Below are positions 7,642 to 60,708 of a DNA stretch of 64,000 nucleotides, one piece after another. Under the pieces are notes generated by a model that worked only from the letters and a program-made list of their open reading frames with translations, made no database searches and was not told where the DNA came from. Made by a program: the position numbers and the translations under genes. Location of the stretch: NCBI GenBank assembly GCA_964427185.1, contig CAYRSN010000003.1:307-64306 (forward strand), in the 5' to 3' direction. Positions within the stretch are counted from its first letter, which is position 1. Every line of letters begins with the position of its first letter. This stretch comes from an uncultured Piscirickettsiaceae bacterium. Lineage in GTDB: Bacteria; Pseudomonadota; Gammaproteobacteria; Thiomicrospirales; Thiomicrospiraceae.

Positions 7642-7667
7642 AAAAAAGCCGGCTTTAAGCCGGCTTT
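7642..7667 (-). terminator. Rho-independent terminator ending the alpha operon
   Basis: The minus strand reads AAAGCCGGC-TTAAA-GCCGGCTTTTTTG, a 9-bp stem plus T-run, 8 nt after the rplQ stop. Confidence 0.75.
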
Positions 7668-7674
7668 CTCTAAC

Positions 7675-8085
7675 TTACTCTGCAGTTTGTTCAGCTGTTT
7701 CTTCATCCGCTGGGAGAGGACGATCCACAAGCTCAACATAAGCCATGGGCGCATTATCCCCAGGGCGTGTTCCGCACTTCAGAATACGCAGATAGCCACC
7801 CGGACGGGTTTGATAACGTGGACCCAGCTCTTCAAAAAGCTTGGTTACAATTGCACGCGCACGATGGTTATTTCCCAAGCGCGCAAATGCCAATCGACGA
7901 TTGGCTACCGTATCTTCCTTTGCCAAAGTAATCAGAGGCTCTGCATGACGGCGTAGCTCTTTTGCTTTTGGCAAAGTCGTTTTAATAATTTCATGCTCAA
8001 ATAATGAAGCAGACATGTTACGAAACATTGCCTTACGATGCGCACTGTTCCGATTAAATTTACGACCACTCTTACGATGACGCAT
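7675..8085 (-). CDS. rplQ: 50S ribosomal protein L17
   Basis: Starts [24 protein letters not shown]. It is the last gene of the alpha operon, after rpoA. Confidence 0.97.
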
Positions 8086-8102
8086 AGTTAAATTCCTTCC
8101 GA

Positions 8103-10597: not shown

Positions 10598-11914
10598 TCA
10601 CTTATTTAGCTTTGCTTTCTTCATCATACTTTCATACTGACTGCTCATTAGCTGGGCTTGAACCTGAGTCATAAAGTCCATCACCACAATCACAATAATG
10701 AGCAAGGACGTCCCTCCAAAATAGAAAGGAACATTCCAATAGAGAATCAAGAACTCAGGCAGCAAACAAACAGCTGTTATATACAGTGCTCCTGCCAGTG
10801 TCAGACGCTCCATAATTTTGTTAATATACCGGGCAGTCGCTTGACCCGGACGGATGCCTGGAATAAAAGCACCCGATTTTCTTAAGTTTTCTGCTGTCTC
10901 TCTCGGATCAAAAACAATCGCCGTATAGAAAAAACAAAAGAAAATAATCGCTAATGCATAAAGCAACACATACAGTGGCTGCCCCGGCGATAGCGTTGTG
11001 GCCAAGTCCTTAAGCCAGCCCATGCCTTCCGCACTACCGAACCACCCTGCAATAGTTGCAGGAAACAGGATAATGCTGGAAGCAAAAATAGGAGGAATCA
11101 CACCCGCCATATTGATTTTCAATGGCAGAAAACCTTCTTGGCCACCAAACATCTTCCTGCCACGCATCTGTTGCGCATACTGAATAGGAATACGACGTTG
11201 TGCACGTTCCACAAAAGCCACAAAAGCCGTTACAGCAATCACAAGCGCTAGCAGAACAAAGACCGTAATAGCATGGATACTGCCTGTTCGCACCTGCTCC
11301 AGGGTTCCGCCTAAAGCAGCCGGCAATCCAGCGACAATCCCGGCAAAAATAATGATAGAGATACCATTCCCCAGCCCTCGCTCGGTGATCTGCTCCCCTA
11401 ACCACATCAGGAAAACAGTTCCAGCAACCAATGTTGAGACAGCAATCACTTTAAAAGTAAAGCCGGGGTCAATGACCACACCGTGGCCACCGATATTTTG
11501 AGACTCAAGGGCTACCGCAATACCCAAGCCTTGAAAAGTCGCCAAAACCACAGTGCCCAGTCGGGTATATTTGGTTAACTTACGCTTACCAGCCTCACCT
11601 TCCTTGCGCCACTGTGACATCACAGGCGAAATATGACTAAGCAACTGAACAATAATCGCTGCTGAAATATAAGGCATGATCCCGAGCGCAAATACGGAAA
11701 GACGCTCTAAGGCACCCCCTGAAAACATATTGAACATGTCCAGAATGGTGCCTTTTTGCTGTTCAAACATTGCCGCCAATGCTTCCGGATCAATGCCTGG
11801 AACAGGCACATGGGCACCCAAGCGAAAAACGATGATCGCACCCAGTACAAACCAGATGCGCTTCATCAATTCGCTCATTGCTTTCGCCTGACCTGAGTCA
11901 ATCGCTGGATTCAT
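10598..11914 (-). CDS. secY: Preprotein translocase subunit SecY
   Basis: 438 aa with 10 hydrophobic segments and conserved motifs ([40 protein letters not shown]). Sits in the canonical position after rplO. Confidence 0.97.
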
Positions 11915-11918
11915 AGTC

Positions 11919-12353
11919 TTAAACTTCTACACTACCACCAGCAGCCTCAATTGCAGCTTTCGCACCTTTCGTACAAGGAATACCTACAACTTTTACAGGC
12001 TTGCTGAGTTCACCAGAAAGGATGATTTTGACAAACAACACATTCTCATTCACAACGTTCGCCGCTTTCAAGGCTGCCAAGTCGATCACTTCCGCATCTA
12101 CGCGATTCAGTTCATCCAGACGAACCTCGTCACGACGCTGGGATTTCAGTGATTTAAAACCAAACTTGGGCAGACGACGCTGGATAGGCATTTGCCCACC
12201 CTCAAAGCCAACTTTATGGTATCCGCCAGAACGTGACTTCTGGCCTTTGTGACCGCGGCCACCCATTTTACCCAAGCCTGAACCTGGTCCGCGTCCTACA
12301 CGCTTTTTAGCCTTTTTGGCGCCTTCAGCAGGTTTCAGAGTATTCAAACGCAT
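11919..12353 (-). CDS. rplO: 50S ribosomal protein L15
   Basis: Starts [43 protein letters not shown]. Confidence 0.97.
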
Positions 12354-12354
12354 C

Positions 12355-12540
12355 TTAAGCTTCCTCTACTTTTAGAAGGTAGGCTACTTTATTGATCATG
12401 CCTCGATTTTCAGGCGTATCAATCACCTCAACAGTCTGATGCATTTTGCGCAGACCTAAACCTTTCACACATGCTTTATGCTTAGGCAAACGTCCAATCA
12501 GACTTTTAATCAATGTTACTTTGATTTTTTTATCTGCCAT
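12355..12540 (-). CDS. rpmD: 50S ribosomal protein L30
   Basis: 61 aa. Reads [35 protein letters not shown]. Confidence 0.95.
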
Positions 12541-12542
12541 GA

Positions 12543-13052
12543 TTATTCACCTACAATTTCATCAACGCTCTTACCGCGTTTTGCCGCAACAGCTTCGGGA
12601 CTACTCATAGAGGCCAGTGCATCTGCCGTTGCACGCACCACATTCACAGGGCGAGTCGTGCCCACGCATTTTGCCAATACATTCTTCACGCCTGCTGCTT
12701 CCAATACTGCACGCATCGCACCACCGGCGATAACACCTGTACCCTCCGAAGCAGGTAACATGATAATCTGAGCTGCCCCTTGCTTATAGTTAATGGGGTA
12801 ATATACCGTCCCATCATTCAAGCTTACTTTGCGCATGTTACGACGCGCTTTTTCCATTGCTTTTTTGATGGCAACCGGCACCTCTGCAGCTTTGGCATTG
12901 GCATAACCAACTCGTCCATTACCATCCCCTACCACGCACAAGGCTGAGAAGCCGAACACGCGACCGCCTTTTACTACTTTTGCAACGCGCCGGACAGAAA
13001 CAAGCTTCTCAATCAACTGTTCCTGATTTTCTTTCATTTCATGTGAAGCCAT
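12543..13052 (-). CDS. rpsE: 30S ribosomal protein S5
   Basis: Contains [42 protein letters not shown]. Confidence 0.97.
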
Positions 13053-13974: not shown

Positions 13975-14370
13975 TTACGCAACAGTGCAGACAACTTCAC
14001 CACCCAGCCCCTGTTTGCGGGCTTCATGGTCAGTCATCACACCTTTTGAGGTTGAAACAATTGCGATTCCCAAGCCACCCATCACTTTTGGCAGCTCATC
14101 CTTTTTCTTATAAACGCGCAATCCAGGGCGGCTTACTCGTTTCACTTCCTCAATCACAGGCTTACCTTGATAATACTTAAGCTTCACAATCAGCTCAGGC
14201 TTACCTGCATTATCAGAAACTTCATAGCCCTCAATATAGCCCTCTTTATGCATTACATCCAGAAGGGCTTTTTTAAGCTTGGAGCTTGCGACCTTAACTT
14301 TGTCATGACCAGCCATTTGCGCATTGCGAATGCGGGTCAACATATCTGCAATCGGATCAGACATACTCAT
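13975..14370 (-). CDS. rpsH: 30S ribosomal protein S8
   Basis: Starts [22 protein letters not shown] and ends [11 protein letters not shown]. Confidence 0.97.
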
Positions 14371-14382
14371 AGTTTTATATCC

Positions 14383-14688
14383 TTACCAGCTCGCTTTCTT
14401 CAGACCAGGAATATCGCCCTGCATTCCGTGCAGACGAATCATATTCCGAGAAAGACCAAATTTTCTATAAACAGCATGTGGACGCCCAGTCAAACGGCAA
14501 CGACGCTGCACACGCACAGGAGAGGCATTACGTGGAAGCTTATTTAACGCTTCCAAGGCTGCCATCCGCTCTTCAAAGGGCAAACTCATATCATTCGCGA
14601 TTGCCTTTAACTTCGCACGTTTTTCAGCGTACTTTTGCACAGTTTTCATACGCTTGAGCTCACGCGCAATCATGGATTTCTTCGCCAT
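14383..14688 (-). CDS. rpsN: 30S ribosomal protein S14 (long, non-zinc form)
   Basis: Starts [20 protein letters not shown] and ends [39 protein letters not shown]. 101 aa. Confidence 0.97.
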
Positions 14689-14696
14689 ATCGCACC

Positions 14697-15239
14697 TTAT
14701 TGCTTTTTAAATGGGAAATTAAACGCTTCCAAAAGCGCTTTTGCTTCTTCGTCAGATTTCGCTGTCGTAGAGATGCTGATATCCATCCCACGGATTGCAT
14801 CCACTTTCTCGAACTCAATCTCCGGAAAGATAATCTGCTCTTTAATGCCCATGTTGTAATTTCCACGTCCATCAAAAGACTTGGGGCTTACACCACGAAA
14901 ATCTCGAACACGAGGCAGCGCAATATTGATCAAACGATCTAAAAACTCGTACATGCGCTCACCACGCAATGTCACTTTACAACCGATCGGCCAACCTTCA
15001 CGAAGCTTAAAACCTGCCACAGATTTACGCGCAAGTGTTTTAATTGGCTTCTGGCCAGCAATCAACGCCATATCCGCCATCGCATGCTCCAGAAACTTTT
15101 TATCTCCCAGCGCTTCACCCACACCCATATTCAGAGTAATTTTGGTTACTTTTGGCACTTCCATTGGTGACTTGTAACCAAACTTCTCCATCAGTTTTGG
15201 CAGCACTTCTTCACGATATACTTTTTTTAATCTAGCCAT
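14697..15239 (-). CDS. rplE: 50S ribosomal protein L5
   Basis: Starts [43 protein letters not shown] and contains [17 protein letters not shown]. Confidence 0.97.
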
Positions 15240-15250
15240 CCCATCAACCC

Positions 15251-15565
15251 TTATGCATCCACGGTCTTGCCGGTTGATTTAAAATAACGAACCTTTTTAT
15301 CCCCTTCAAGACGGTAACCAACACGGTCTCCCTTCCCTGTCTCAGGGTTAAATAACATGACATTGGAAGCATGAATAGGCATCTCTTTAGAAATGATGCC
15401 TCCCTGCTCTCCCGTCATAGGGTTCGGCTTAACATGTTTCTTTACAAGGTTAATGCCATCCACCAGGACACGACCATTTGCCAACACTTTGGAAACAGAG
15501 CCTCGCTTTCCTTTGTCCTTGCCGGCAATCACAATGACTTCGTCACCTTTCTTTAATCGATTCAT
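15251..15565 (-). CDS. rplX: 50S ribosomal protein L24
   Basis: Starts [24 protein letters not shown]. The ATG at 15565 sits about 8 nt after GGA. The listed ORF start at 15571 is a TTG two codons upstream. Confidence 0.95.
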
Positions 15566-19441: not shown

Positions 19442-20058
19442 GCGAGCTTCTCCTCAAGCTGTTTCAATGCACCCTGCGTCATCACAACGGTTTCATAACC
19501 AATCAGACTTACAGGATCTACACCTTCAACGTCAGTGGCAGCAGCATTGTAGAGGTTGCGAGACGCCAAAAAAACATTCTCATCAAAGGCCTCTGTCACC
19601 ACCAGCACATCCTTCACCCCCAACTGCTTCATTTTTTCAACAAACTGCTTAGTTTTAGGGGCTTCCAATTTAAAATCATCTACCACTTTAAGACGATCGT
19701 TACGCGCCAACTCAGACAAAATGGCACGCATCGCTGCACGATACATCTTTTTATTAACTTTCTGAGCATAACTTCTCGGCTTATTAGGAAAGGCTCGCCC
19801 GCCCCCTACCCAAATAGGGCTACGAATCGTACCTGCACGCGCACGTCCTGTTCCTTTCTGACGCCACGGCTTTGCTCCTCCACCGCTGACTTCAGAGCGA
19901 TTCTTTTGAGCTTTAGTGCCCGCACGCGCTTTGGCCATATAAGCCGTTACAACCTGGTGCACCAGAGGCTCATTAAAGGTTGCCGCAAACACCGCATCAT
20001 TAACACTTAAAGCTTCAGAAGCCTCACCTGTATTAGAGTTAATTACCTTAATATCCAT
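19438..20058 (-). CDS. rplD: 50S ribosomal protein L4
   Basis: Contains [42 protein letters not shown]. Confidence 0.97.
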
Positions 20059-20064
20059 AATCGC

Positions 20065-20706
20065 TTACCCCTTGATCGCTTTACGCACGACAACCATGCT
20101 GCCATTCGCACCAGGGACTGCACCTTTAACGAGAACCAAACCATCTTCCACATCCACCTTAACAACTTTAAGGTTCAGTGTAGTTTGACGCTCATTTCCC
20201 ATATGACCAGCCATTTTCTTACCTTTAAAAACACGCCCGGGCGTTTGGTTCTGCCCAATGGAACCTGGTGCACGGTGCGACAAGGAGTTACCATGTGTAG
20301 CATCCTGAGTACGGAAGTTATGACGCTTTACGCCGCCCTGAAAGCCCTTCCCTTTCGTGACACCTGTCACATCAACCTTTTCCACTTCAGCCAGCTTTTC
20401 AACTGTCAGCTCCGACCCAAGCTCAAGCCCTTCCAGTTCCGCTTCTGTCTCAACACGGAACTCCCATAGACCCACACCTGCTTCGGTGCCAGCCTTGGCA
20501 TAATGACCAGAAAGCGGCTTATTTACGCGACCCGGATGTTTTTTTCCTGTGGTGACCTGAACAGCTGCGTAACCATCTACTTCAGGCGTCTTAATCTGTG
20601 TAACACGATTAGGCTCAACCTGAATCACCGTAACAGGCACAGAAATACCGTCCTCGTCAAACACGCGGGTCATGCCGATTTTCTTACCGACAACACCAAT
20701 TGCCAT
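20065..20706 (-). CDS. rplC: 50S ribosomal protein L3
   Basis: Starts [25 protein letters not shown] lies 9 nt before the ATG at 20706. The listed ORF starts two codons earlier. Confidence 0.96.
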
Positions 20707-20775
20707 AACCATTCATCCTCATTGTTATTTTTGGCCAGTCATTACGATTGATGACTGACACAACATGCACTTAAA

Positions 20776-21087
20776 TCAGTGCAACTCAATTTTCACATCG
20801 ACACCAGCAGCCAAATCCAACTTCATTAACGCATCAACCGTTTTGTCTGTCGGATCAACGATATCTAAAAGACGCTTATGCGTACGAATCTCATATTGAT
20901 CACGCGCATCCTTATTGACGTGAGGAGAGATCAGTACCGTATAGCGCTCTTTACGGGTTGGCAAAGGAATCGGACCATGCACTTGAGCCCCAGTCCGCTT
21001 TGCTGTTTCCGCAATCTCTTTGGCTGACTGATCAATCAGTCGATGATCAAAAGCCTTTAAACGAATACGTATATTTTGTGCAGCCAT
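20776..21087 (-). CDS. rpsJ: 30S ribosomal protein S10
   Basis: Starts [25 protein letters not shown] and contains RTHKRLLDI. Confidence 0.97.
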
Positions 21088-21110
21088 ACCACAACTCTTA
21101 AGTTTGTGAA

Positions 21111-21137
21111 AACAAAAGCAGCGGCCAAGCCGCTGCT
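21111..21137 (-). terminator. Intrinsic-terminator hairpin in the S10 leader (attenuator-type)
   Basis: The minus strand reads GCAGCGGC-TTG-GCCGCTGC, an 8-bp GC-rich stem, followed by TTTTGTTTT. It ends 24 nt before the rpsJ ATG and lies downstream of the promoter at 21152-21180. Confidence 0.6.
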
Positions 21138-21151
21138 ATTCAGGGTTGCGA

Positions 21152-21180
21152 ATTATAACTCAGCGTTTACGCCTTTTCAA
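21152..21180 (-). promoter_or_regulatory. Putative S10-operon sigma70 promoter
   Basis: The minus strand reads TTGAAA, a 17-nt spacer, then a perfect TATAAT, between the tuf stop and the S10 leader hairpin. Confidence 0.5.
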
Positions 21181-21210
21181 TAACAACCCGTTGTTTTTGT
21201 TAAAAAATGA

Positions 21211-22401
21211 TCACTCGATCACTTTAGCAACAACACCTGCGCCAACGGTGCGACCGCCTTCACGGATCGCAAAACGCAGACCTTCGTCCATCGCGATTGG
21301 AGCAATCAGCTCTACTGACATCTGAACGTTGTCACCAGGCATGACCATTTCTACACCTTCTGGTAGTTGACATGCACCGGTTACGTCTGTTGTACGGAAG
21401 TAGAACTGTGGACGGTAGCCATTGAAGAATGGGGTGTGACGACCACCTTCTTCTTTGGTCAGCACGTATACTTCTGCTTCGAATTTGGTGTGTGGATTGA
21501 TGGTGCCTGGCTGTGCCAGTACCTGGCCACGCTCTACTTCTTCACGCTTGGTGCCACGCAGTAGCACACCTACGTTATCACCCGCCACGCCTTCGTCCAG
21601 AAGTTTACGGAACATTTCTACACCGGTTACGGTGGTCTTTTGTGTTGGACGAATACCTACGATTTCTACTTCGTCACCTACACGAACGATACCGGTTTCA
21701 ATACGACCGGTTACTACGGTACCACGTCCCTGGATGGAGAATACGTCTTCAATCGGCATCAAGAACGGCTTGTCTGTGTCACGCTCTGGGGTCGGGATGT
21801 ATTCGTCCATGGCGTTAACCAGACGCTCAATGGAGGGCTCTCCAATCTCTGAGGTGTCACCTTCAATGGCTTTCAGGGCTGAACCTGTAATAACAGGAAC
21901 ATCGTCTCCGGGGAAGTCGTATTCGCTCAGTAGTTCACGCACTTCCATTTCAACCAGTTCGAGCAGCTCTTCGTCGTCTACCATGTCTGCTTTGTTGAGG
22001 TATACGACGATGTAAGGTACACCTACCTGACGAGATAGCAGGATGTGTTCACGGGTCTGTGGCATAGGACCATCTGCTGCTGACACAACCAGGATGGCAC
22101 CATCCATCTGGGCTGCACCTGTGATCATGTTTTTGACGTAGTCGGCGTGACCCGGACAGTCTACGTGGGCGTAGTGACGATTCTCTGATTCGTATTCTAC
22201 GTGTGCTGTAGAGATGGTAATACCACGCGCACGCTCTTCCGGTGCGTTGTCAATCTGGTCGTATGCTTTGGTTTCACCACCAAATTTCTTGCCCTGAACA
22301 ATGGTCAGTGCCGCTGTCAGTGTGGTCTTGCCGTGGTCTACGTGACCAATTGTGCCCACGTTTACGTGGGGTTTCGTACGCTCAAACTTTTCCTTTGCCA
22401 T
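21211..22401 (-). CDS. tuf: Elongation factor Tu (copy downstream of fusA)
   Basis: 396 aa. Starts [27 protein letters not shown] and contains DCPGH and NKAD. TGA stop. Confidence 0.98.
21214..22401 (-). repeat. 1188-nt segment that appears nucleotide-identical to 37610..38797 (tuf coding sequence only)
   Basis: The proteins are identical. All overlapping alternative-frame ORF translations are identical between the two loci. Visual comparison of both ends and the middle found no mismatch. Identity stops at the start codon and at the stop codon. Confidence 0.85.
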
Positions 22402-48389: not shown

Positions 48390-49311
48390 AGCTCTGCGCT
48401 GGGCTTACACACAGCTGGCTCACAGTGACACACCTCAGCTGGATGCACAGCTTCTACTCTGCCATGTGCTGCAACGTCCTCGCAGCTGGCTGTTCGCCCA
48501 CCACGACGCACCTTTGTGCACCACACACTGGCAACAGTTTCAAACACTCATCCAGCAGCGTAGCGAAGGGCAACCTGTCGCCTACCTGCTCGGCGAGCAG
48601 GAGTTTTACGGTTTAAAGCTCAAACTTACCCAAGATGTACTTATTCCCCGCCCAGAGACCGAACTTTTAGTGGATTTAGCACTAAAAATCAGTAAAAATC
48701 CAGCATTTTCACAAAAAATCGCGTTCGAAAAAAAAGGGGGAGACCCCCTTCAGAGGACGGAGGACAGAGGACAGAAGACAGAAAGCACAAACAAGAGAAT
48801 AGACAACAATACTATTTCCATCGTCGACCTGGGCACTGGTAGCGGTGCCATTGCCCTGGCGCTTAAACACTATCAGCCTGAATGGAATGTATATGCCAGT
48901 GATCAAAGCCCGGAGGCTCTTCAAGTTGCCAAAGAAAATAGTCAGCGCCTTGGACTTGAAGTCCATTTCCGCCAGGGCAACTGGCTTGCACCTTTTTCAG
49001 GTGAGTCCTTTCACCTGATTATTAGCAACCCTCCCTACATTGCCCCTGATGATCCACATCTGCAGGGAGATATCCGCCATGAGCCCCATACGGCACTGGT
49101 ATCAGCACAGACAGGATTGAAAGACTTGTTTCATATTATTGACCAATCCCCTGAATACCTGCATGAAGGTGGCTGGCTGCTACTGGAACATGGGTATAAT
49201 CAGGCAGAGACTGTATGCCAGCGGCTCAAGGCACGTGGCTTTGAGCAGGTGCATACGGAGTTTGACTTTGCGGGTAATCCAAGAGTGAGTTTAGGCCAAT
49301 GGAACAACTAA
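48373..49311 (+). CDS. prmC: Release-factor glutamine N5-methyltransferase PrmC (HemK), with an approx 35-40-aa insert in the interdomain linker
   Basis: Contains [14 protein letters not shown], the SAM motif [13 protein letters not shown], and the catalytic NPPY. 312 aa against about 277 in E. coli. Confidence 0.93.
48734..48806 (+). repeat. Perfect hairpin followed by a decaying heptanucleotide tandem array, inside prmC
   Basis: AAGGGGG-AGA-CCCCCTT at 48734-48750 is followed by CAGAGGA CGGAGGA CAGAGGA CAGAAGA CAGAAAG CACAAAC AAGAGAA TAGACAA at 48751-48806. Confidence 0.7.
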
Positions 49312-50052: not shown

Positions 50053-51201
50053 TCACAGCCGGGTGCGGTACTGCTGGTAACTGCTTGCCACTTTTTTCAA
50101 GTAACGACGGGTTTCGTCATAGGGCAAATGTTGCAGCAAATGCTGATACACCTGCTCAGGGGTCATGTTATTGATTTTTTGTGCCGCACGGCGAATATTC
50201 GTACTACCTGTAAAACTTCTCGCCACATTGCCCGCACCAGTGTTATAAGCTGCAATAACACAGTAACGGCGGCTTTTCGGATCTTGGATGTGCTTTAAGT
50301 AACGATAGTTCAGAATATGTAAATAAGCGACACCTGTCTGAATATTTTTCTCTGGCGTATAAAGGTAACTGGGACTCAACACCTTAGGTTGCCCAAACAG
50401 ATACTGCGTCGCATCCTTCCCCGCAGAAGTGGGCACAATCTGCATCAGGCCATAAGCGGGCACATGGGAAGTCGCCAAAGGATTAAAACTGCTTTCATGC
50501 TTAATAATAGCCAACACCAGTGCCGGCTCGACCTTGTGCTGTTGCGCCTGCTGCAAGACAGACGGCAACACAGCTTTTACCCGATCCTGTACATCATTCT
50601 CTTGCAGGCGATAACGCAGCTGCACCAGTTGCTGATCTGGCTTTATCTCAAAACGGGCAGTCGCCAGATTGGCATTTTGCGCCAATATGGGCACACGCTT
50701 TTTGGGGATCTGCGCCTGTTTCCGCCAGGCTGGCGGCACTTTGGCCTGAATTGCCTTTTCCAGCGATACACTGGGCTGATCCTGCTTAAATGCTGCGGCA
50801 TAGTCCATCTTCTTTAATGCCTCAAGCCTCAAAGCAAGTTTACGCTTCAAAGCCTCAAGCTGCATAGGGGACGGATTTTCGGGCAATTTCTGCGCCACTA
50901 TCACTTCTTGCTTGTCGAAATCCACCACCGTGCGCTGTTTAAACTGATCCGAATAGCTCACCCAGCGCTTGGGCGAGCTGACCAATGCCTCCGGCCATTG
51001 TTTGAGAATCCCCTTTTTATACTGCTCAAATGCCTGTGCATAGGCCTGTTTGTAAAGTTTGAAAGCCTCCTGCTGACTTTTCACATACTGGTCATAGGCC
51101 TGCAACTGCTGTTGGCGGTATTGCTCAAAGGCCTGAGCATCCGTCTGTGCCCAGACATTCAGCGACAAAAGGCATGCGCTTAAAAACAGGGCGTTTTTCA
51201 C
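50053..51201 (-). CDS. mltC: Membrane-bound lytic murein transglycosylase, MltC-like lipoprotein
   Basis: The C-terminal half is colinear with E. coli MltC (LAIIKHESSFNP, YGLMQIVPTSAGKD, AAYNTGAGNV, RRYLKKV). An upstream DUF3393-like segment reads WVSYSDQFKQRTVVDFD. The lipobox is FLSAC. I prefer the GTG at 51201, 4 nt after the upstream stop. The listed ATG at 51255 would overlap the upstream gene by 50 nt. Confidence 0.8.
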   Translation of the reverse strand: MKNALFLSACLLSLNVWAQTDAQAFEQYRQQQLQAYDQYVKSQQEAFKLYKQAYAQAFEQYKKGILKQWPEALVSSPKRWVSYSDQFKQRTVVDFDKQEVIVAQKLPENPSPMQLEALKRKLALRLEALKKMDYAAAFKQDQPSVSLEKAIQAKVPPAWRKQAQIPKKRVPILAQNANLATARFEIKPDQQLVQLRYRLQENDVQDRVKAVLPSVLQQAQQHKVEPALVLAIIKHESSFNPLATSHVPAYGLMQIVPTSAGKDATQYLFGQPKVLSPSYLYTPEKNIQTGVAYLHILNYRYLKHIQDPKSRRYCVIAAYNTGAGNVARSFTGSTNIRRAAQKINNMTPEQVYQHLLQHLPYDETRRYLKKVASSYQQYRTRL

Positions 51202-51205
51202 TGTC

Positions 51206-52333
51206 TTAACCCTCAAAGTCCGTTTTGGAAACAAGCACACGCAAGGCTTTTTCAAGCCGGCGACCTACTGCCTGCTGCAGCATTTGCGTATCATTAGCAT
51301 AACTTGTCACCTGCAGCTGGGTTCTAAGACGCTTCAGGCGCCGCTGCCCCTTGTAAAACGCCAGAGACAACTGCACCTGATGACGAACGAACTCATCCAC
51401 CCGCACCACCTGATCCTGCATATCTACTTTTAAAGTGACCGCAGCCTTCAGTGCCAATACAAACCCCAAAGTAGCCAACCAATCCTGCCATTGCGCCTCA
51501 GAGATAAACGCAAGCTTTGGAGAAACCTCAAGCGCTATCGGCATCGCTACCCGCTCTGGGATCCAATCCACCGTCTGCTCGATACGCTGCCCTGCATGCA
51601 CCTGCAAAATGCCCTCTACCGGCTGATAACCCTCGCTTTCTATCCGATAGTCATGACGACCGGGCGGCAGAAAAATTGGCGCTTGAGTGGAGATCCTGCG
51701 CCCATCAATATGGAGTGTGACCGGCTTGCCCTGCAGGTTCAGCACCCAAAGGGCATGGGTCTGGCGCAGCTCCAACCAACGCAGCTTTTGCTCAACTTCA
51801 GTCAGGTCTTTCTGATATTTTGCCTGCAGAGACTTGGGGAGCGCCAGCAAAATCGCCTGCAGCATGCGCGCCTTTTCTTGTAATCGAGGCACTGCCGCCA
51901 AAGAAAGGCTTTCAGGTTTGAAGGCTGTCGCAGCTTGTAAATAACGCACCGTCTGCGCCACAGCCTCCTCATCCATCATCGCCACCACCCGGACATGCCC
52001 AGGTGTTTGCTCAAGCACACGATATCGCACCCCTTTTAACAGCACATGAGAATGCACCTGCCGTGCAGTTTTGGCAAAACGGCTTAACTGGCCATCACGA
52101 TCCTCTACCGTCTGGGAGACTTCTGTTTTGACTTCCGCCAAAATCTGTTGGCTTAACATGGACAGCGCCTGCGCTTTGGCTGAAGACAGGTCTTCTCCTA
52201 TGCCCTCCGCTTCAAAAACCACAAAGCTCGCCCTTCCCACCCTGGATAAAGGCAGCAGGGATATGCCTAAGGCACACTTCAAGCAGTGACGGCGGCTAAG
52301 ACTAATCAAGCTGCATTTCTCCTGTACTGTCAT
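51206..52333 (-). CDS. Uncharacterised exported protein with a Tat-like signal, an LPP20-like N-domain and a PEGA-like domain
   Basis: SRRHCLK, then the hydrophobic CALGISLLPL, then SRVGRA resembles a twin-arginine signal. FVVFEAEGIGEDLSSAKAQALSMLSQQILAEV is LPP20-like. VTLHIDGRRISTQAPIFLPPGRHDYRIESEGYQPVEGILQV matches the PEGA-domain pattern. The start overlaps the upstream gene by 32 nt. Confidence 0.6.
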   Translation of the reverse strand: MTVQEKCSLISLSRRHCLKCALGISLLPLSRVGRASFVVFEAEGIGEDLSSAKAQALSMLSQQILAEVKTEVSQTVEDRDGQLSRFAKTARQVHSHVLLKGVRYRVLEQTPGHVRVVAMMDEEAVAQTVRYLQAATAFKPESLSLAAVPRLQEKARMLQAILLALPKSLQAKYQKDLTEVEQKLRWLELRQTHALWVLNLQGKPVTLHIDGRRISTQAPIFLPPGRHDYRIESEGYQPVEGILQVHAGQRIEQTVDWIPERVAMPIALEVSPKLAFISEAQWQDWLATLGFVLALKAAVTLKVDMQDQVVRVDEFVRHQVQLSLAFYKGQRRLKRLRTQLQVTSYANDTQMLQQAVGRRLEKALRVLVSKTDFEG

Positions 52334-53510
52334 CCAAACGCAGAATCAACAGACGGCCGGATTCCAGCTCTCGCTTCAACTGACCTGCGCCCACATAATG
52401 CTGCTTTAGCGCATAATACAAAGAGGTCGCATCCGGCATCCCTTTGAGGCGTACTAAATAACTGACTGACCGCTCACCTGCTTTCAGACGCTTGAGCTGG
52501 GTCGGTTTAAGAGCTCGCAAGGCCTGATACAGCTGCATCTCCTGCGCCTCTGCCTGCTGAGGATTCAGGCTGGCTACCAATTTATACCAGATACCCTGTG
52601 TCGCTTGTTGCTGCCACACCTTTAGCAACCGGGCGGTTAAGACACTGGCTGCATCATTCGCTGCCTCCTGCACCAAAGCTTCACTGGCCGTCCCTACACG
52701 CTTGGGTGAGTAGCCCGTAGCACTGCCCAATAGCTGAGCGGATGCCGTCTCATAAGCACGTGCCTGTACACTGGCCTGTGCACCTTCTACCCCCTTGTCA
52801 CGAAAATGCTGCACCGATGCCTTAACTTCCACATAAACATCCGCACCCGTTTTAGAAGCCAATAAAAACATGGGATCCACCTGACCGTTCAGCCGAGCCA
52901 CCTTTTCAATCAGATGGGTGTTTTTATCGCTGGTGTTTTTATCCACCAGAGAAAACCCCTGATTGACCAACTGCTGTTCCAGCACATTAGCAGCAGCCTT
53001 CGCCTCAGGTGACACGGAAAGCACTACCACACTGGGCAGGCCAATCTCACTATTTAATTGGGCATTGTCGGCCAATACGCCATCTGATTGAAGCTGCTCT
53101 TGAAGCAATTGTGTGTCAATAGCTACTCTAAATTTCAAGTGCACACGGCCTTGTTCATCCACTTGTTTGGAAAGAGGGCTGGACAAATAACGCACATATT
53201 CATCCACCTGACGGTAATATTTTTTAGCTAAGGATTTAAAACGTGCTCTGGCCTCAGGTGTGTTCAATAATCTTTGCTGACCCGCATGGAGAGCCGCCCA
53301 AAGCGCAGCTTTTTTGGCATCCTGGCGGGCTTGAGTAATGTTTTCACCCACTCCCCATACTTCATAAAGAAGACGCCCTGCTGCAGAGACCTCTACCAGC
53401 AGTGCTTGCTTACTTTGGGGGGTAACCGGCTGCTCCCTAACCGTCTGTGAAGCACACCCGGACAAACCCAGCAAAACCAATAGCACAAAACGCAATAGGT
53501 AATGATTCAT
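52302..53510 (-). CDS. Uncharacterised 402-aa lipoprotein
   Basis: The signal plus lipobox is MNHYLLRFVLLVLLGLSGC. AGGTGA lies about 7 nt before the ATG. Ala/Gln-rich alpha/beta segments (EVSAAGRLLYEVWGVGENITQARQDAKKAALWAAL) recall LPP20/FlgT-type folds, but I recognise no defining motif. Confidence 0.6.
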   Translation of the reverse strand: MNHYLLRFVLLVLLGLSGCASQTVREQPVTPQSKQALLVEVSAAGRLLYEVWGVGENITQARQDAKKAALWAALHAGQQRLLNTPEARARFKSLAKKYYRQVDEYVRYLSSPLSKQVDEQGRVHLKFRVAIDTQLLQEQLQSDGVLADNAQLNSEIGLPSVVVLSVSPEAKAAANVLEQQLVNQGFSLVDKNTSDKNTHLIEKVARLNGQVDPMFLLASKTGADVYVEVKASVQHFRDKGVEGAQASVQARAYETASAQLLGSATGYSPKRVGTASEALVQEAANDAASVLTARLLKVWQQQATQGIWYKLVASLNPQQAEAQEMQLYQALRALKPTQLKRLKAGERSVSYLVRLKGMPDATSLYYALKQHYVGAGQLKRELESGRLLILRLDDSTGEMQLD

Positions 53511-53525
53511 CCACTCACCTGACTG

Positions 53526-55295
53526 TTATTGTTTGAAAAAACGGTGCAAAAAGCCCAATGTAGAGAAAGTATGCTGATACCCTACCCCCACGGTCAGACC
53601 TGGAGTGATGGTGGCATCCACTTCAATATCACCTATTCTGGCCTGATTTAACAAGCTGACAGGATATCCCACATATAACCCTAATTGATGTTGGGGACTC
53701 ACAAGGTAGATCAATTCCAACCTGCCCATCAAATCCAGGCTGACATAACCGAATTCATCGCCATTTTCCAGTGATGAGTTTGCAGCAAGGTAATAACCTG
53801 TCACGCCAAAGCCATAGCCTGCGCTCCAGCCACGACCGAGCGTGTTGTGATTGATAAAGTCCATACCCAGCTTAATCCCAATTGGGGTGTCCCAGGACTG
53901 ACTCGACAGCGTTGTTTTTAAATCACCGTCGCCCACGCCAAAAGCCGCATACATAGACAGCCAGCTTTCGCTTAACTCAGGATCATTCTCAAAATAGCCT
54001 CGATCGAAGCGTGCTTGCCAACGCAGCCAGTTGATCTTTTGCTCAGGCTTTAATACGGTAGCGCCATTGATGCTATCAAAGGTGAAGTCCTGAGAAAATA
54101 GATCAACCCCCCAATAGGCTCCCGTCCAAGGCACTTCAGAAAGCCGATCATAAATCTCCGCCTCACCTTTTATAACAATCCACTCCGAAACAGGCTGCTC
54201 GTTCTCCTTAGGTGCAGGAGCCACCTTACGCACTTTGGCCAACCCGACGGTTTGCAACACCCCGTTAATCGAGCGCTGAATGCGATACATTGCATCCATG
54301 CGCAAATCATCCTGCTCGGAAAGCAGTGCGGTAATCGTGCGCCAATCCACAGACTGAACCGTCTGCGCCATATTAAACTGCGGCACTGCTTTTAACTTGT
54401 GAACCAGCTGAATCAGACTGGCGCGCCATGCGCTTTGCAACGCACGCTCAAACAGTTTGTGCAAATCCTGATTGGAAGGAAATGACCGGGTTTTAAGCGA
54501 AGCGCCGATTTCACCGGACTCCCCTTCCAACACCTTAAATAATTTGAAACCGGCAGCAGCACTATCATAGCGGTAAATATAGAGCTTATTACGCAGATCA
54601 AAATCCATATCGCTATCGTAATAACTCCGCTCACCCTGAGGTTTCACATAGGTAATGGTTAACTCGCCCCGTATTGCCGGTTGATACATGGCCATGACAA
54701 ACTGACTGTCCAATAATGTAGAGACCACCTTCATGGGGATCCCTAAAGACTTTGCCTGCGTGCGGATAAAAGTCGCCCGTTCCTGTTCCGACTGTTCACG
54801 ATAGCGTTGCGCCAGAGCGGCTTTTTGCAGTGGCAAAATAAAAGGTGCCAACTGACGGCTTAAGTAGTTTTCCACAGCCTTCTGCCAGGCGGTTTCCGAC
54901 ATTGGTGGCGTGTGCAATGCTTTTAAAGCAGGTGCTGGAATAGCTTTGCTGGCTGATCTTGTCACAATCTTCAACTGCCCAGCTTCCAGCCGAACCACAT
55001 CAAAGCGTTTTTGATACAGCCACTGCATAGCCTGATCACCCAATTGAGTACGCAACGCAGGTGAAAGCGTAAAAACCTGCCCTTTACGCTCGCGACACTT
55101 GCCGTGGCACATCTTTACGCGCACTGGCACACGCGCACTTTCCAAACCAACCTGTGGCAACACCATCACAGCCTGACGCTGATACACACGCTGGGAATCA
55201 TCGGTTTGTTCCACCTTATCTATGGCAGCAGCGGGAAAACTGCCCAATAGATAGCCACATATAGCGATTAACCCCGCCACAATCGTTTTTTTCAT
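53526..55295 (-). CDS. Uncharacterised 589-aa secreted protein with a beta-barrel-like C-terminal third
   Basis: The Sec signal is MKKTIVAGLIAICGYLLGSFPAAA. The last 200 aa or so show alternating aromatic/Gly strands (GWSAGYGFGVTGYYLA, LGLYVGYPV, GLTVGVGYQHTF), as in outer-membrane barrels. GGAAGG lies 6 nt before the ATG. Confidence 0.6.
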   Translation of the reverse strand: MKKTIVAGLIAICGYLLGSFPAAAIDKVEQTDDSQRVYQRQAVMVLPQVGLESARVPVRVKMCHGKCRERKGQVFTLSPALRTQLGDQAMQWLYQKRFDVVRLEAGQLKIVTRSASKAIPAPALKALHTPPMSETAWQKAVENYLSRQLAPFILPLQKAALAQRYREQSEQERATFIRTQAKSLGIPMKVVSTLLDSQFVMAMYQPAIRGELTITYVKPQGERSYYDSDMDFDLRNKLYIYRYDSAAAGFKLFKVLEGESGEIGASLKTRSFPSNQDLHKLFERALQSAWRASLIQLVHKLKAVPQFNMAQTVQSVDWRTITALLSEQDDLRMDAMYRIQRSINGVLQTVGLAKVRKVAPAPKENEQPVSEWIVIKGEAEIYDRLSEVPWTGAYWGVDLFSQDFTFDSINGATVLKPEQKINWLRWQARFDRGYFENDPELSESWLSMYAAFGVGDGDLKTTLSSQSWDTPIGIKLGMDFINHNTLGRGWSAGYGFGVTGYYLAANSSLENGDEFGYVSLDLMGRLELIYLVSPQHQLGLYVGYPVSLLNQARIGDIEVDATITPGLTVGVGYQHTFSTLGFLHRFFKQ

Positions 55296-55328
55296 TATTG
55301 CCTTCCAAAACCCGTTTTAATCAGATAT

Positions 55329-55359
55329 AAAAAAGCCTCTTATCCAATAAGAGGCTTTT
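55329..55359 (-). terminator. Strong rho-independent terminator between the LPP20 gene and the 589-aa gene
   Basis: The minus strand reads AAAAGCCTCTTA-TTGGA-TAAGAGGCTTTT, a perfect 12-bp stem running into TTTTTT. It lies 20 nt after the LPP20 stop and 34 nt before the next ATG. Confidence 0.7.
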
Positions 55360-55379
55360 CATACTCCGAGTCGCAGAAC

Positions 55380-55994
55380 CTACTGCCCTTCACTCATCTG
55401 CTTTGCAATTTCTGCCGCCATTTCATCGAAACTTTGTTTGGCCTTAAACTGTTGCCAAAGTGCACGATCATTGTTATACGAAGTTTTCAATGCCTGCTCA
55501 GTAATCTTTTTGACATCTTCAGGCGTTATGCCAACCAGTACATACATCCGCCCATTCGACCCCACACGGGTTTTGTAAACTTTAGAGCCGACCAGTGTCT
55601 GTGCTGTGATACTTTTCGCCGTACTGCTGGCAACAGCATCTACCGTCTCATCATCATGCATACCTGTGGTACCCAGATACTGCTTTACCATTTTCTGAAC
55701 TTGAACCTTCATCTGCTCAGCCAGCTGACCACGGGCATCCAGCACCGCCTGATCACGCATAAAACTAAGCCCTGCCTTGGATTTTTCAGCGATCCCTACG
55801 GCACTGACCGCAAGCCCCGGTACAGGTTCACTACAAATCCAGCCCGGCGCAGGGGTATTGGTTTCAGGAAATACGCAATCTACCACCGGCTCAGGCGCAG
55901 GTTGAGGTTTTGCTGGTGCCTGCTTTACCTCGCTTGATCCACATCCACTCAATAATGCCGCTGAAACAGCAGAAATCCAAAAAGCTTTTTTCAT
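55380..55994 (-). CDS. LPP20-family lipoprotein (FlgP/Lpp20-like)
   Basis: The lipobox is AALLSGC. APGWI...VSAVGIAEKSKAGLSFMRDQAVLDARGQLAEQMKVQVQ...GSKVYKTRVGSNGRMYVLVGI follows the H. pylori Lpp20 pattern (APDWV ... A.A.A.LA ... VFVLVG). Confidence 0.7.
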   Translation of the reverse strand: MKKAFWISAVSAALLSGCGSSEVKQAPAKPQPAPEPVVDCVFPETNTPAPGWICSEPVPGLAVSAVGIAEKSKAGLSFMRDQAVLDARGQLAEQMKVQVQKMVKQYLGTTGMHDDETVDAVASSTAKSITAQTLVGSKVYKTRVGSNGRMYVLVGITPEDVKKITEQALKTSYNNDRALWQQFKAKQSFDEMAAEIAKQMSEGQ

Positions 55995-56019
55995 TTTTAT
56001 CTCCCGTGAACAAGTCTAA

Positions 56020-56068
56020 AGGCACCTCCGCAAAACCCTGAATTATTCAGGGTTTTGCGGAGGTGCCT
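56020..56068. repeat. 49-nt perfect palindrome (24-bp arms) in the motB-LPP20 spacer
   Basis: AGGCACCTCCGCAAAACCCTGAAT t ATTCAGGGTTTTGCGGAGGTGCCT. I checked every arm position base by base. No U-tract follows on either strand. Confidence 0.9.
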
Positions 56069-56137
56069 AACACAAAGTAACCTTAACAGTAACTTGCCAC
56101 CCTTTCTATTCAAGGTTTTAATTACACACGATAAAGA

Positions 56138-56872
56138 TCACATATTAACCTGCTTAAACTGTCCAGTGACGGGATCAAAACGACGTGTCTTGTCAATTTC
56201 TATCACCACTCTGCGGTTCATTGCACGACCAAACCGGGTGTCATTGGGAGCAACCGGGTCATTGTCTGCACGCCCTTGGACAGTAATCAGCCGCTTATTA
56301 ATATCCATATCCAGAAAAACCCGCGCGACACTGGCTGCACGCGCAGCGGAAAGCTCCCAGTTAGACGGAAACTGTAAGTTATGAATGGGAATATTATCCG
56401 TGTAGCCGGTGATAATAATGGGATAAGGTCGCCCATAAAGCAATTCCGCCACCTGCTCCAGCTCTGCACGTGCCTGATCAGACAGGCTGGCACGCCCAGA
56501 CTCAAAAAAGTGATCGGACTTCAAGACAATGGTGATTTTTTCCGGCGTTTCGCTGATTTCTACGTTTTTGGAGTTTTTCAGCGCTTCTTGAATCTCCTCA
56601 AGGCTTGGGGGAGGTTTGGCCTCTATCACCGAAATAGGAGAGGGAGCCGGCGGAGAAGTATCCTTGCTTTCAATGAGTGTTTCCTGTGGATTGGCACCAT
56701 TTAAATTTTGTAGCGCCGCGGCAAACTCCTGACGTTTGCCAGGCTCTACAATACTTGCCAACCACATAACCAAAAAAAAGGCCATCAATACGGTCATCAT
56801 ATCAGCCAGCGCGATTTTCCACGCTCCGCCATGTGCTTCCTCTTCGGATGGTAAGTTTCGCCTGCGCGCCAT
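56138..56872 (-). CDS. motB: MotB-type stator protein (proton-channel plug/TM plus OmpA-like peptidoglycan-binding domain)
   Basis: [24 protein letters not shown] is colinear with E. coli MotB [23 protein letters not shown] and includes the essential Asp. A Pro-rich linker follows. The OmpA-like C-domain reads GYTDNIP...[13 protein letters not shown]...NRRVVIEI. Confidence 0.85.
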   Translation of the reverse strand: [244 protein letters not shown]

Positions 56873-56873
56873 A

Positions 56874-57716
56874 TCAGTCTGCCTCTGGTTTTCGCATGGC
56901 AGGCGGAATCAAGCGGTCACCCAGTTCACGCAGGAGCTTGGGAGAAACCCCCTGATAAATTGCATCAATCAAGGAAGCCGCCAGTTCAAATACCCCTCTT
57001 TCCTGACGAATCATCACCTCCACCGCATGAGTAAAGGGACCGACCACCGCAAAGGCAAAAAACACCCCTGTCAAAGTACCTACCAGTGCTGCACCAATGG
57101 CTTCACCGATTTTCGCCACATCCATATCTCCACCCAGCAGCCCCATAGCAAGAATAACACCCAGTACCGCCGCCACAATTCCAAAACCGGGCAACCAGTC
57201 TGCCACCTTACCACTGGCGCGCGGCACTTCTTTCAAGGTCTCCATATATTGGTCAATCTGTTGATGCAGCAGCTCTTCAAGACGCTCACCTTTAGGCGGG
57301 TTCAGCAAAATATAGCTGAGATTTTGCGCAATAAACTGTTGTAATTCCGGATAAGCTTGAATAGCTGGGTAATCATTAAAAATTGGGCTGTTATCCGGAT
57401 CAACCAGATGCCGGTCTAACGACAGTATGCCTTCAGAGCGGGCGAGGCGAGCAAGATCATAGAGCAAGTCTCTCGTTTCGTAATACAGCTCACTGCCGAC
57501 CTTCTCACCAGCAAAATAACGCCCTAAAAATACAAAGGTTTTTTTCCAGACACTAATCGGCGTGGCCGCCATCCAGGCACCCAGCGACATCCCTAAAATA
57601 ATCAACAGCTCAGAAGGGTGAAAAAGGCTGGCAATATGCCCTCCGGCGATTAAAAAACCGCCGATCAAAGACGCAAAAACAATTAAGATGGCAATCAGCT
57701 TTGCCGCAATATTCAT
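56874..57716 (-). CDS. motA: MotA-type stator protein (MotA/TolQ/ExbB proton-channel family, MotA architecture)
   Basis: 280 aa. GGFLIAGGHIASLFHPSELLIILG, LPGFGIVAAVLGV and ALVGTLTGVFFAFAVVGP are colinear with E. coli MotA TM1-2, TM3 and TM4. A large cytoplasmic loop lies between TM2 and TM3. The stop is 1 nt from the motB ATG. Confidence 0.85.
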   Translation of the reverse strand: MNIAAKLIAILIVFASLIGGFLIAGGHIASLFHPSELLIILGMSLGAWMAATPISVWKKTFVFLGRYFAGEKVGSELYYETRDLLYDLARLARSEGILSLDRHLVDPDNSPIFNDYPAIQAYPELQQFIAQNLSYILLNPPKGERLEELLHQQIDQYMETLKEVPRASGKVADWLPGFGIVAAVLGVILAMGLLGGDMDVAKIGEAIGAALVGTLTGVFFAFAVVGPFTHAVEVMIRQERGVFELAASLIDAIYQGVSPKLLRELGDRLIPPAMRKPEAD

Positions 57717-60333: not shown

Positions 60334-60708
60334 GTGGCAGAAAAGCTTCCGCCTATACGAGTAGAAACAGACCGCACCGTGCAGATCACTGGTGGAAACC
60401 GTAGCGTTAAAGGTAAACTTCTGGAACTTTCCCTCACAGACGCCCTGATTAACAGTCCGGCCAATGCAAAAGCCGGTACAAAGTTACGGTTAAAGTTTGA
60501 TATTCCCGCCGGTGATCGCTTTGCGGAGGTGACCGTATTTGGCAAAGTGACCCGTGCCTCAAACTTCCAAGGGCGTTATTTACTCAATATTCAGTTCGAT
60601 ACCTTACCCACCCGGGCACAAAAAGATATTCAAGCATTCATCGACTTCAAACAAAGACTGAAAAAAATGAGTGTACGCCCCGGCGGCAGTAGCTATGCTT
60701 CAGAGTAG
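60334..60708 (+). CDS. PilZ-like domain protein (degenerate motifs)
   Basis: 124 aa with a GTG start. The beta-barrel-like pattern reads RVETDR...GKLLELSLTDALI...AEVTVFGKVTR...YLLNIQFDTL. The c-di-GMP motifs RxxxR and D/NxSxxG are only approximated. Confidence 0.5.
   Translation: MAEKLPPIRVETDRTVQITGGNRSVKGKLLELSLTDALINSPANAKAGTKLRLKFDIPAGDRFAEVTVFGKVTRASNFQGRYLLNIQFDTLPTRAQKDIQAFIDFKQRLKKMSVRPGGSSYASE

Follow-up and report, generated by a model that had tools for sequence, protein, structure and literature searches.

A recurrent envelope gene module next to a flagellar-type stator pair: a candidate outer-membrane-anchored periplasmic scaffold

INTRODUCTION

A stretch of 64,000 nt from an uncultured Piscirickettsiaceae bacterium (contig CAYRSN010000003.1 of assembly GCA_964427185.1), which is analyzed here at its full length and referred to as the window, carries the stator genes motA and motB followed on the same strand by five genes for predicted envelope proteins. 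These are an Lpp20-type lipoprotein, three proteins that we call F589, F402 and F375 according to their lengths and, collectively, the core triad, and an MltC-like lytic transglycosylase. A preliminary description of this DNA treated the seven genes as one candidate undescribed envelope system, either a new periplasmic scaffold for the flagellar stator or a non-flagellar machine driven by protons. The locus raises the question of whether these genes belong together and, in particular, whether the stator pair is a member of the system or only its neighbor.

RESULTS

Recurrence of the module in distant genomes

The genomic contexts of 12 lineages found through F589 homologues were compared, with organism labels of the carriers taken from NCBI protein titles only. 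The triad was clustered in nine of the 12 lineages, and the corresponding counts were seven for the Lpp20-type gene, five for the MltC-like gene and only one for motAB. The Lpp20-type and MltC-like genes are frequent companions of the core. The single lineage with motAB beside the module is that of the window, comprising the window and its close relatives L001 and L002, and the pair was absent from this position in the other 11 lineages. What remains of the proposed seven-gene synteny is therefore the five downstream genes, or at least the core triad, which recur in distant genomes; the membership of MotA and MotB in the system is not supported, because they are linked to it in one lineage of 12 and evolve apart from the triad, as seen in the comparison with L001 described below.

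A scan of metagenomes seeded with F402 added the locus L022, which has the gene order of L007, and several shorter contigs with the same neighbors. F589 and F402 were found clustered in L001, L002, L004, L006, L007, L009, L010, L011, L016, L018, L021-L024, L026 and L027; in clusters holding both, F402 is always downstream of F589, and immediately adjacent to it except in L011. F375 accompanies the two in nearly all these clusters, and alignments and hidden Markov model (HMM) searches over all loci agree on the homology of the partners. Carriers of the module include metagenome-assembled genomes (MAGs) labeled Gammaproteobacteria, Desulfurobacteriaceae and Aquificaceae, together with the cultured Desulfurobacterium atlanticum. 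The module is thus found in two bacterial phyla, with an inheritance separate from that of the stator genes.

That the five downstream genes are neighbors by chance was ruled out by their recurrence together in other genomes: their grouping exceeds chance, and their tie to motAB does not. The conserved core had no inner-membrane or ATPase component in the loci examined. As an undescribed envelope gene set, the module has proved to be real and conserved, and no published description of it was found. The genes in the window and the gene orders of the related loci are listed in Table 1.

Table 1. Features of the locus in the window, gene orders in related loci, and positions of the extra genes in Aquificota modules
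Locus	Feature or gene order	Position	Strand	Basis or remark
Window	motA	56874-57716	minus	MotA_N + MotA_ExbB
Window	motB	56138-56872	minus	MotB_plug + OmpA
Window	Perfect 24+24-nt palindrome	56020-56068		motB-Lpp20 spacer; repeat search
Window	Lpp20-type lipoprotein gene, 204 aa	55380-55994	minus	LPP20 PF02169, lipobox
Window	F589, 589 aa, core triad member 1	53526-55295	minus	AlphaFold2 (AF2) model + Foldseek
Window	F402, 402 aa, core triad member 2	52302-53510	minus	DUF6175 PF19672
Window	F375, 375 aa, core triad member 3	51206-52333	minus	BLASTP, PEGA, LPP20-like signals
Window	MltC-like gene	50053-51201 (GTG start) or 50053-51255 (TTG start)	minus	SLT + Mltc_N
Window, L001, L002	motA-motB-Lpp20-F589-F402-F375-MltC			
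L004/L005	F589-F402-Lpp20-F375			Gammaproteobacterial MAG
L009	F589-F402-Lpp20-F375			Gammaproteobacterial MAG
L007	MltC-F589-F402-Lpp20-F375			
L006	MltC, Lpp20, F375-like PEGA protein, F589, F402, with extra genes			Aquificota type
L010	Same pattern as L006			Aquificota type
L011	Same pattern as L006			Desulfurobacterium atlanticum
L026	F589-F402-F375			
L027	F589-F402-F375			
L003	F589 alone			Short Aquificaceae contig
L008	F589 alone			
L028	F589 alone			13-kb contig
L006	Extra genes of the module	1088-7971		
L010	Extra genes of the module	7772-8812		
L011	Extra genes of the module	1921-5550, 7577-8659, 11860-12582		

A divergent cassette within the locus

Comparison with the sister genome L001 separates the stator genes from the triad in another way. 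The two genomes are about 95% identical in DNA; their identity is 91-98% in both flanks and 57-69% over approximately 50,450-55,200, with sharp edges; because a MAFFT alignment was scored in 300-nt bins, the limits of this cassette of about 4.7 kb are approximate. It comprises the N-terminal part of the MltC-like gene, F375, F402, and F589 except for about its first 45 codons, and the Lpp20-type gene lies outside it. Identity to L001 at the protein level is 98.6% for MotA, 97.1% for MotB and 95.6% for the Lpp20-type protein, as against 62.6% for F589 (92% in its first 50 residues), 68.2% for F402 and 60.1% for F375. The MltC-like protein, which is 79% identical overall, shows when measured per 50 aa 42-80% in its N-terminal part and 92-100% in the SLT domain. 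The neighboring genes from ileS to hemA encode proteins with 96-99% identity, with the exception of prmC; in a second, small divergent patch at 48,600-49,200, PrmC is only 70% identical to its L001 counterpart owing to a variable insert in its central part.

The triad and the N-domain of the MltC-like protein appear to behave as one exchangeable or fast-evolving, co-evolving unit, and because they diverge jointly as one block, we read this as evidence that they may interact. We also read it as evidence that MotAB and the Lpp20-type protein, being near-identical to those of L001, are not locked to the triad and the MltC N-domain. The cassette has probably diverged either through block replacement by recombination or through diversifying selection, and its divergence suggests exposure to phage, predators or hosts.

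The spacer between motB and the Lpp20-type gene has a folding energy of -60.8 kcal/mol (z = -7.3) and contains a perfect palindrome (Table 1). The window and L002 share this palindrome, whereas L001 lacks it; relative to L001 it is an insertion, and it has no second copy in the window. Lying between motAB and the module, it could serve as a terminator or as a hairpin for RNA stability; a conserved terminator in this spacer was rejected, since L001 is without the palindrome, and an Rfam search on it gave spurious microRNA matches only.

Predicted structures of F589 and F402

F589 belongs to no Pfam or NCBIfam family, its sole match being a sub-threshold one to OMP_b-brl at the C-terminus. Its relatives were found by an exhaustive HMMER profile search and not by word-indexed protein search: the former yielded 83 cluster representatives (51 at E<=1e-30), most of them full-length at about 600 aa, and the latter, carried out with F589, with F402 and with a 37-sequence F589 alignment, returned only the allele of the window and the sister allele, which for F589 is 63% identical. 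F589 is rare, and its homologues are named 'hypothetical' or 'porin family protein' in the source records.

The AF2 model of F589, built with 37 sequences, reached a predicted local distance difference test score (pLDDT) of 90.5 and a predicted template modeling score of 0.85. It starts with a signal peptide and ends in a C-terminal barrel; between these lie two alpha/beta domains separated by a helical segment, and then a small beta domain. This agrees with the earlier view of a Sec-exported protein with a beta-barrel-like tail. The predicted periplasmic part (residues ~40-390) is a three-domain, FlgT-like structure, and the predicted barrel (residues ~393-576) is 8-stranded and of the OmpA/OmpW type. 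In a Foldseek search against the PDB, the first-ranked match for the periplasmic part was 8z5n_0, a chain of an 'LPHT ring' entry (1.9e-6), and the FlgT crystal structure 3w1e was third (8e-6). The barrel superposes on OmpW, NspA and OmpA with target-normalized template modeling (TM) scores of 0.6-0.73.

F402 was one of three central proteins previously regarded as having no named family. This holds for F589 and F375 as far as curated families are concerned, and fails for F402, which matches Pfam DUF6175 (PF19672; 1.7e-7, 31.1 bits against a cut-off of 23 bits) over residues 167-306 only; homologues are named 'DUF6175 family protein' at NCBI, and no mention of DUF6175 was found in a literature search. 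F402 has the lipobox LSGC with an invariant Cys19. Its AF2 model from 14 sequences (pLDDT 84.7) again gave 8z5n_0 (7e-9) and FlgT 3w1e (1.3e-8) as the top Foldseek matches in the PDB, followed by single-domain matches to PelC, CT253, LptE, HpaA, GNA1162, Cj1090c and CsgG, with target-normalized TM scores of 0.4-0.54 for PelC, LptE, CsgG and GNA1162. F402 is accordingly predicted from the model to be a lipoprotein of three alpha/beta domains of the FlgT/PelC/LptE type.

Taken together, the matches of F589 and F402 to FlgT-type entries have a Foldseek probability of 1.0 and E-values of 1e-6 to 1e-8 over 310-397 columns. The likeness to FlgT lies at the level of predicted folds only, as found by Foldseek local alignment: neither protein carries the Pfam signatures FlgT_N, FlgT_M or FlgT_C, two of which (FlgT_N and FlgT_M) are matched by the true FlgT of L009. 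An hhalign comparison of F589 with F402 found no relation, and searching the PDB sequences with the profiles of F589, F402 and F375 gave nothing meaningful. A literature search for FlgT-like proteins or FlgT homologues found nothing related.

F375, the Lpp20-type lipoprotein and the MltC-like enzyme

F375 detects by BLASTP its 363-aa partner in L004 (8e-33) and a 668-aa PEGA protein in L006 (7e-19). The PEGA-like domain suggested for it is weak in the window copy (0.009) and is supported by the family, in which five of eight members match, the best at 2.9e-9. LPP20 is matched by three of the eight members and weakly by the window copy; an hhalign alignment of the F375 N-domain with the LPP20 alignment gave a probability of 57% over 141 columns, and the gene in the F375 slot of L021 has a clear LPP20 domain (4e-13). 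On the basis of Pfam and hhalign, F375 is probably exported and has an LPP20-like N-domain that a helical linker joins to a PEGA beta-sandwich, with an alpha/beta domain at the C-terminus. A Tat-like signal had been ascribed to it, and the window copy does carry SRRHCLK (twin-arginine consensus S/T-R-R-x-F-L-K), with TRRASLK in L001 (12995-14110). The motif is specific to the window lineage, the six other homologues aligned being without it; elsewhere the signals are plain Sec signals in gammaproteobacteria and lipoboxes in L006 and L011.

The 204-aa protein matches LPP20 (3e-10, 40.8 bits against a cut-off of 25.9 bits), has the lipobox LLSGC, and is 56-64% identical to its partners in gammaproteobacterial loci. 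Its family profile matches Helicobacter pylori Lpp20 (5OK8) over the full length at 1.4e-9; assignment as FlgP proper was rejected, since the profile matches Lpp20 and not FlgP chains. An hhalign comparison of LPP20 with F402 aligned the signal peptides alone.

The MltC-like protein contains SLT (7e-27) and Mltc_N (2.6e-6) domains and the motifs HESSFNP (with the catalytic ES), GLMQI and AYNTGAGN, and is 41% identical (2e-91) to the SLT gene product adjoining the module in L007. With 202 bits against the NCBIfam MltC model NF008670, below the cut-off of 375 bits, its sequence marks it as an MltC-like paralogue rather than an equivalog. The preliminary description had counted it among three lipoproteins; the lipoboxes of the 204-aa protein and F402 stand, and that of the MltC-like protein is ambiguous, the N-terminus from the GTG start resembling a Sec signal that ends VWA/Q.

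From these predictions, F589, F402, F375 and the Lpp20-type protein all appear to be built from one class of outer-membrane-associated alpha/beta modules, and the predicted folds point to the FlgT/LPP20/PelC class of ring formers associated with the outer membrane. Characterized members of this class include four that assemble into rings beneath the outer membrane (FlgT, FlgP, PelC and CsgG) and one, LptE, that closes the LptD barrel as a plug.

The stator pair

MotA and MotB give clear Pfam matches (MotA_N 5.6e-21, MotA_ExbB 1.1e-11, MotB_plug 7.4e-17, OmpA 8.2e-17). MotA matches TIGR03818 (MotA1) at 2e-68 with 230.6 bits, under the NCBIfam cut-off of 303.8 bits, and the best NCBIfam model for MotB is MotD PRK09038 (5e-54; 183.6 bits, under the cut-off of 283 bits); because the scores lie under these equivalog cut-offs, the pair is a divergent member. 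Alignment with the Escherichia coli proteins confirmed the retention, noticed earlier, of the channel Asp of MotB (the proton-binding D32, here D24) and of both prolines of MotA (P173 and P222, here P176 and P227). It further showed that the FliG-contact residue R90 is kept as R93, that E98 is conservatively changed to D101, and that the plug and the OmpA-like peptidoglycan-binding anchor of MotB are kept.

Apart from the sub-cut-off NCBIfam scores, the pair thus has by its sequence every tested hallmark of a flagellar-type stator. It shares with MotAB/MotCD stators the domain architecture, channel Asp, plug, two prolines, FliG-contact charges and OmpA-like anchor, and differs in falling below the equivalog cut-offs and in lying within a 64-kb window without flagellar genes. 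MotA and MotB are most likely an ordinary flagellar stator that is merely the upstream neighbor of the module in the window lineage.

Surroundings of the module

All seven open reading frames are present on the minus strand where they had been placed, and the spacings are correct as described: 1 nt for motA/motB, 143 nt for motB/Lpp20, 84 nt for Lpp20/F589 and 15 nt for F589/F402, with a 32-nt overlap for F402/F375. The gap of 4 nt between F375 and the MltC-like gene applies to the GTG start at 51201 and not to the TTG start at 51255. The same-strand run does include the seven genes; it does not begin at motA, since upstream of motA, at a distance of 50 nt, lies the end of parC, and ahead of parC there is an HMA gene, both on the same strand. 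We likewise found no flagellar, che, tol or exb gene anywhere in the window, the rest of which is housekeeping (ribosomal operons, rpoA, secY, uvrA, hemA, prfA, parC and ileS). Promoter and terminator scans of the region gave fewer sites than in shuffled sequence.

A PilZ gene at 60334-60708 (plus strand) is divergent from HMA-parC-motAB in the window and also in L001. Other genes related to cyclic di-GMP near the module are a weak PilZ match in L009 (19147-19455), a GGDEF gene in L004 (976-2460) and, following immediately on the triad of L027, an HD-GYP-like gene (14305-15465); this recurrence may be a coincidence.

The Aquificota modules contain additional genes. The Lpp20-type gene and the F375 homologue are separated by a gene for a 346-363-aa protein without family, and CarboxypepD_reg domains occur in a 1209-1324-aa protein encoded near the module. 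In D. atlanticum, a 240-aa FecR-like protein lies between F589 and F402.

Genes of other 5:2 motors were observed near the module in two further lineages. In D. atlanticum, tonB-exbD-exbB (L011, 13818-15508) is convergent with the module and follows right after F402; L006 and L010, close relatives of D. atlanticum, are without an exb neighbor. A standard tolQRAB-pal-cpoB cluster lies about 3 kb from the module on the opposite strand in L027 (16249-21045) and L018 (8510-12876).

DISCUSSION

A proposed autonomous periplasmic scaffold

We favor, with a probability of about 0.5, the reading that the module encodes an autonomous periplasmic scaffold which is anchored in the outer membrane and has its own lytic transglycosylase, MotAB being an unrelated flagellar neighbor. 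This reading builds on results presented above, namely the genes present, their conservation and synteny, the folds predicted for their products, the types of signal and the divergent cassette. F589 would be inserted in the outer membrane by its C-terminal 8-stranded barrel, its three FlgT-like domains reaching into the periplasm, and F402 and the Lpp20-type protein would be lipid-anchored in the inner leaflet of the same membrane; F375, after export, would join the other parts via its LPP20-like and PEGA domains. The proteins may co-assemble into an oligomeric scaffold under the outer membrane, which would probably be ring- or disk-like as in the cases of FlgT, FlgP, PelC and CsgG. The MltC-like enzyme would be recruited through its N-terminal domain and open the peptidoglycan locally to make room, and the module would neither need MotAB nor travel with it. 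Ring formation under the outer membrane is a known behavior of this fold class, as in the H-ring (bioRxiv 10.64898/2025.12.02.691832).

Several points weigh against this reading. The same FlgT-type matches that have high Foldseek probabilities have global TM scores of only 0.14-0.28 and root mean square deviations of 14-22 A, so that domains match and their arrangement does not, and an hhalign comparison with the true FlgT from L009 gave the profiles of F589 and F402 probabilities of 0.2% and 0.5%. Because homologues of F589 (in L003, L008 and L028) and of F402 (in L017) also occur alone, triad proteins can exist without the set. Ring assembly, recruitment of the transglycosylase and the cellular role are steps that we infer, and oligomerization and location are predicted. 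In addition, in the window lineage the module consistently follows motAB immediately and on the same strand, and in L009 a true flgT is encoded about 5 kb further downstream, on the opposite strand; the motAB adjacency and this nearby flgT hint at some possible dependence of the module on the flagellum.

A possible flagellar accessory structure

The last-mentioned points lead to the alternative that survives best, which we consider possible and clearly less probable than an autonomous scaffold: the module could be an accessory of the flagellar motor, forming an outer-membrane disk or ring round the basal body like the Vibrio H-ring or the FlgP basal disk of Campylobacter and Helicobacter. Its role would be to stabilize the bushing or to serve as a scaffold for the MotAB stators, and the MltC-like enzyme would clear the peptidoglycan for a wide structure. 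The idea of a periplasmic scaffold given in the preliminary description was reasonable in this respect, FlgT-type entries being the best PDB matches of both F589 and F402. The set also includes an LPP20-family lipoprotein, and earlier work to which PMC11756786 refers assigns the Lpp20 fold to FlgP as well as FlgT. In the window lineage a canonical stator immediately precedes the module, and in L009 about 5 kb separate the module from flgT with its adjoining LPP20-like gene; the type species of Desulfurobacterium, the genus of one carrier, has polar flagella (PMC3368423). Moreover, unassigned peripheral densities remain in the H-ring of the in-situ structure from Vibrio cholerae (bioRxiv 10.64898/2025.12.02.691832), and therefore disk components yet to be identified exist in general.

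On the opposite side, no flagellar gene was found within 10 kb of the module in the other 10 lineages, and F589 and F402 have no sequence-level relation to FlgT. In L009, the true flgT (19477-21356; FlgT_N, FlgT_M and weak FlgT_C) adjoins a gene for a 239-aa LPP20-like protein; since this locus holds a Vibrio-type H-ring gene besides the module, the module is not a replacement of FlgT there, and the proposal that it is the Vibrio-type H-ring itself was rejected. For the lipoprotein the closest solved relative is H. pylori Lpp20, whose deletion leaves motility and motor structure wild type, although Lpp20 and HP1454 co-precipitate with FapH and FlgP (PMC11756786). The low conservation of the triad relative to L001 (60-68%, against 97-99% for MotAB) would also be unusual for parts docking onto a conserved motor. 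On this flagellar reading, the module would be a third kind of outer-membrane disk of flagella, of independent evolutionary origin, on which stators of the proton type are scaffolded.

With the Vibrio H-ring (FlgT, FlgP and FlgO), the module shares 8z5n_0 and 3w1e as top matches of F589 and F402, an LPP20-family lipoprotein (FlgP in Vibrio), and the location of all parts, which are outer-membrane-anchored or periplasmic there and predicted to be so here. It differs in that F589 is fused to a barrel and F402 is predicted to be lipidated, neither of which applies to FlgT; in F375 (PEGA) and the MltC-like protein, which have no counterparts in the H-ring; and in the absence of motX/motY linked to the module. 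The Lpp20 operon of H. pylori (HP1456/Lpp20 and HP1454) is similar in its lipoprotein, matched over the full length of 5OK8, and its HP1454 product, which is secreted and has three domains, the first of them Lpp20-like (PMC11756786), recalls F375 and F402. No F589-type barrel or MltC-like gene is described in that operon, however, and the F402 and F375 profiles have no sequence-level match to any PDB chain.

A less likely export conduit

Less probable than a flagellar accessory, by a good distance, is an outer-membrane export or assembly conduit, in which domains like those of PelC, CsgG and LptE would form a periplasmic funnel or plug that passes a polymer or protein on. PelC works for PelB, LptE for LptD, and CsgG alone. 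Single domains of F402 do match PelC, LptE, CsgG and GNA1162 at the TM scores given above, those proteins being, as F402 is predicted to be, lipid-anchored in the outer membrane; all parts of the module are predicted to be outer-membrane or periplasmic, and a dedicated lytic transglycosylase is found in many trans-envelope systems. F402 differs in having three such domains in one chain. The conduit is weakened because the sole barrel associated with the module is 8-stranded like OmpA, OmpW and NspA, too small for polymer export, and because genes for a substrate are missing: the conserved neighbors of the module include no substrate, polymerase, ATPase or inner-membrane partner, none of the loci has pel, csg or lpt partner genes, and polysaccharide genes lie near the module only sporadically (L006 and L009).

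Hypothetical coupling to a proton-driven motor

We regard it as improbable that an outer-membrane-anchored ring of the FlgT/Lpp20 fold couples to whichever 5:2 motor adjoins it, MotAB, ExbBD-TonB or TolQR, so that the proton-motive force drives work at the outer membrane; if true, such work would lie beyond the flagellar, Ton, Tol, gliding and Zorya contexts known so far. The closely related proposal of the preliminary description, a non-flagellar envelope machine in which MotAB or another 5:2 motor energizes the five downstream proteins, is the least likely of all: in spite of the short same-strand distance to motAB in the window lineage and the other 5:2 motors nearby in two lineages, tonB-exbD-exbB (L011) and tol-pal (L018/L027), it is weakened because motAB are linked in one lineage of 12, the FliG-contact charges of MotA (R93, D101) are kept together with a normal plug and peptidoglycan-binding domain in MotB, and MotAB (97-99% identity to L001) and the triad (60-68%) do not evolve as one unit, while the three kinds of motor occur in three arrangements, of which the two that are not flagellar resemble ordinary housekeeping clusters, the exb neighbor of D. 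atlanticum is lacking in its close relatives L006 and L010, no module protein has a TonB/TolA-like or MotB-interacting signature, and a perfect palindrome separates motB from the module in the window.

Significance

A caution for inference from gene neighborhoods follows from this locus, in which the conspicuous motAB neighbor is lineage-specific. As judged from the models, the module may be placed in the LPP20/FlgT/PelC class as an outer-membrane ring system of distinctive make-up, with a barrel-fused FlgT-like protein, a DUF6175 protein, a PEGA protein and an MltC-like protein. We know of no earlier example in which the periplasmic part of a ring-forming fold class is anchored by fusion to an outer-membrane barrel. 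The analysis provides a defined gene set and confident structural models for a rare, scattered module whose proteins have so far been annotated as 'hypothetical', 'porin family' or 'DUF6175', and which is predicted to form a large assembly under the outer membrane. We know of no in-situ images of the motors of module carriers. If the assembly is docked on the flagellum, it would represent a new solution to the scaffolding of stators or the bushing; if it is not flagellar, it would be an uncharacterized structure of the outer membrane and periplasm that has its own peptidoglycan-cutting enzyme.

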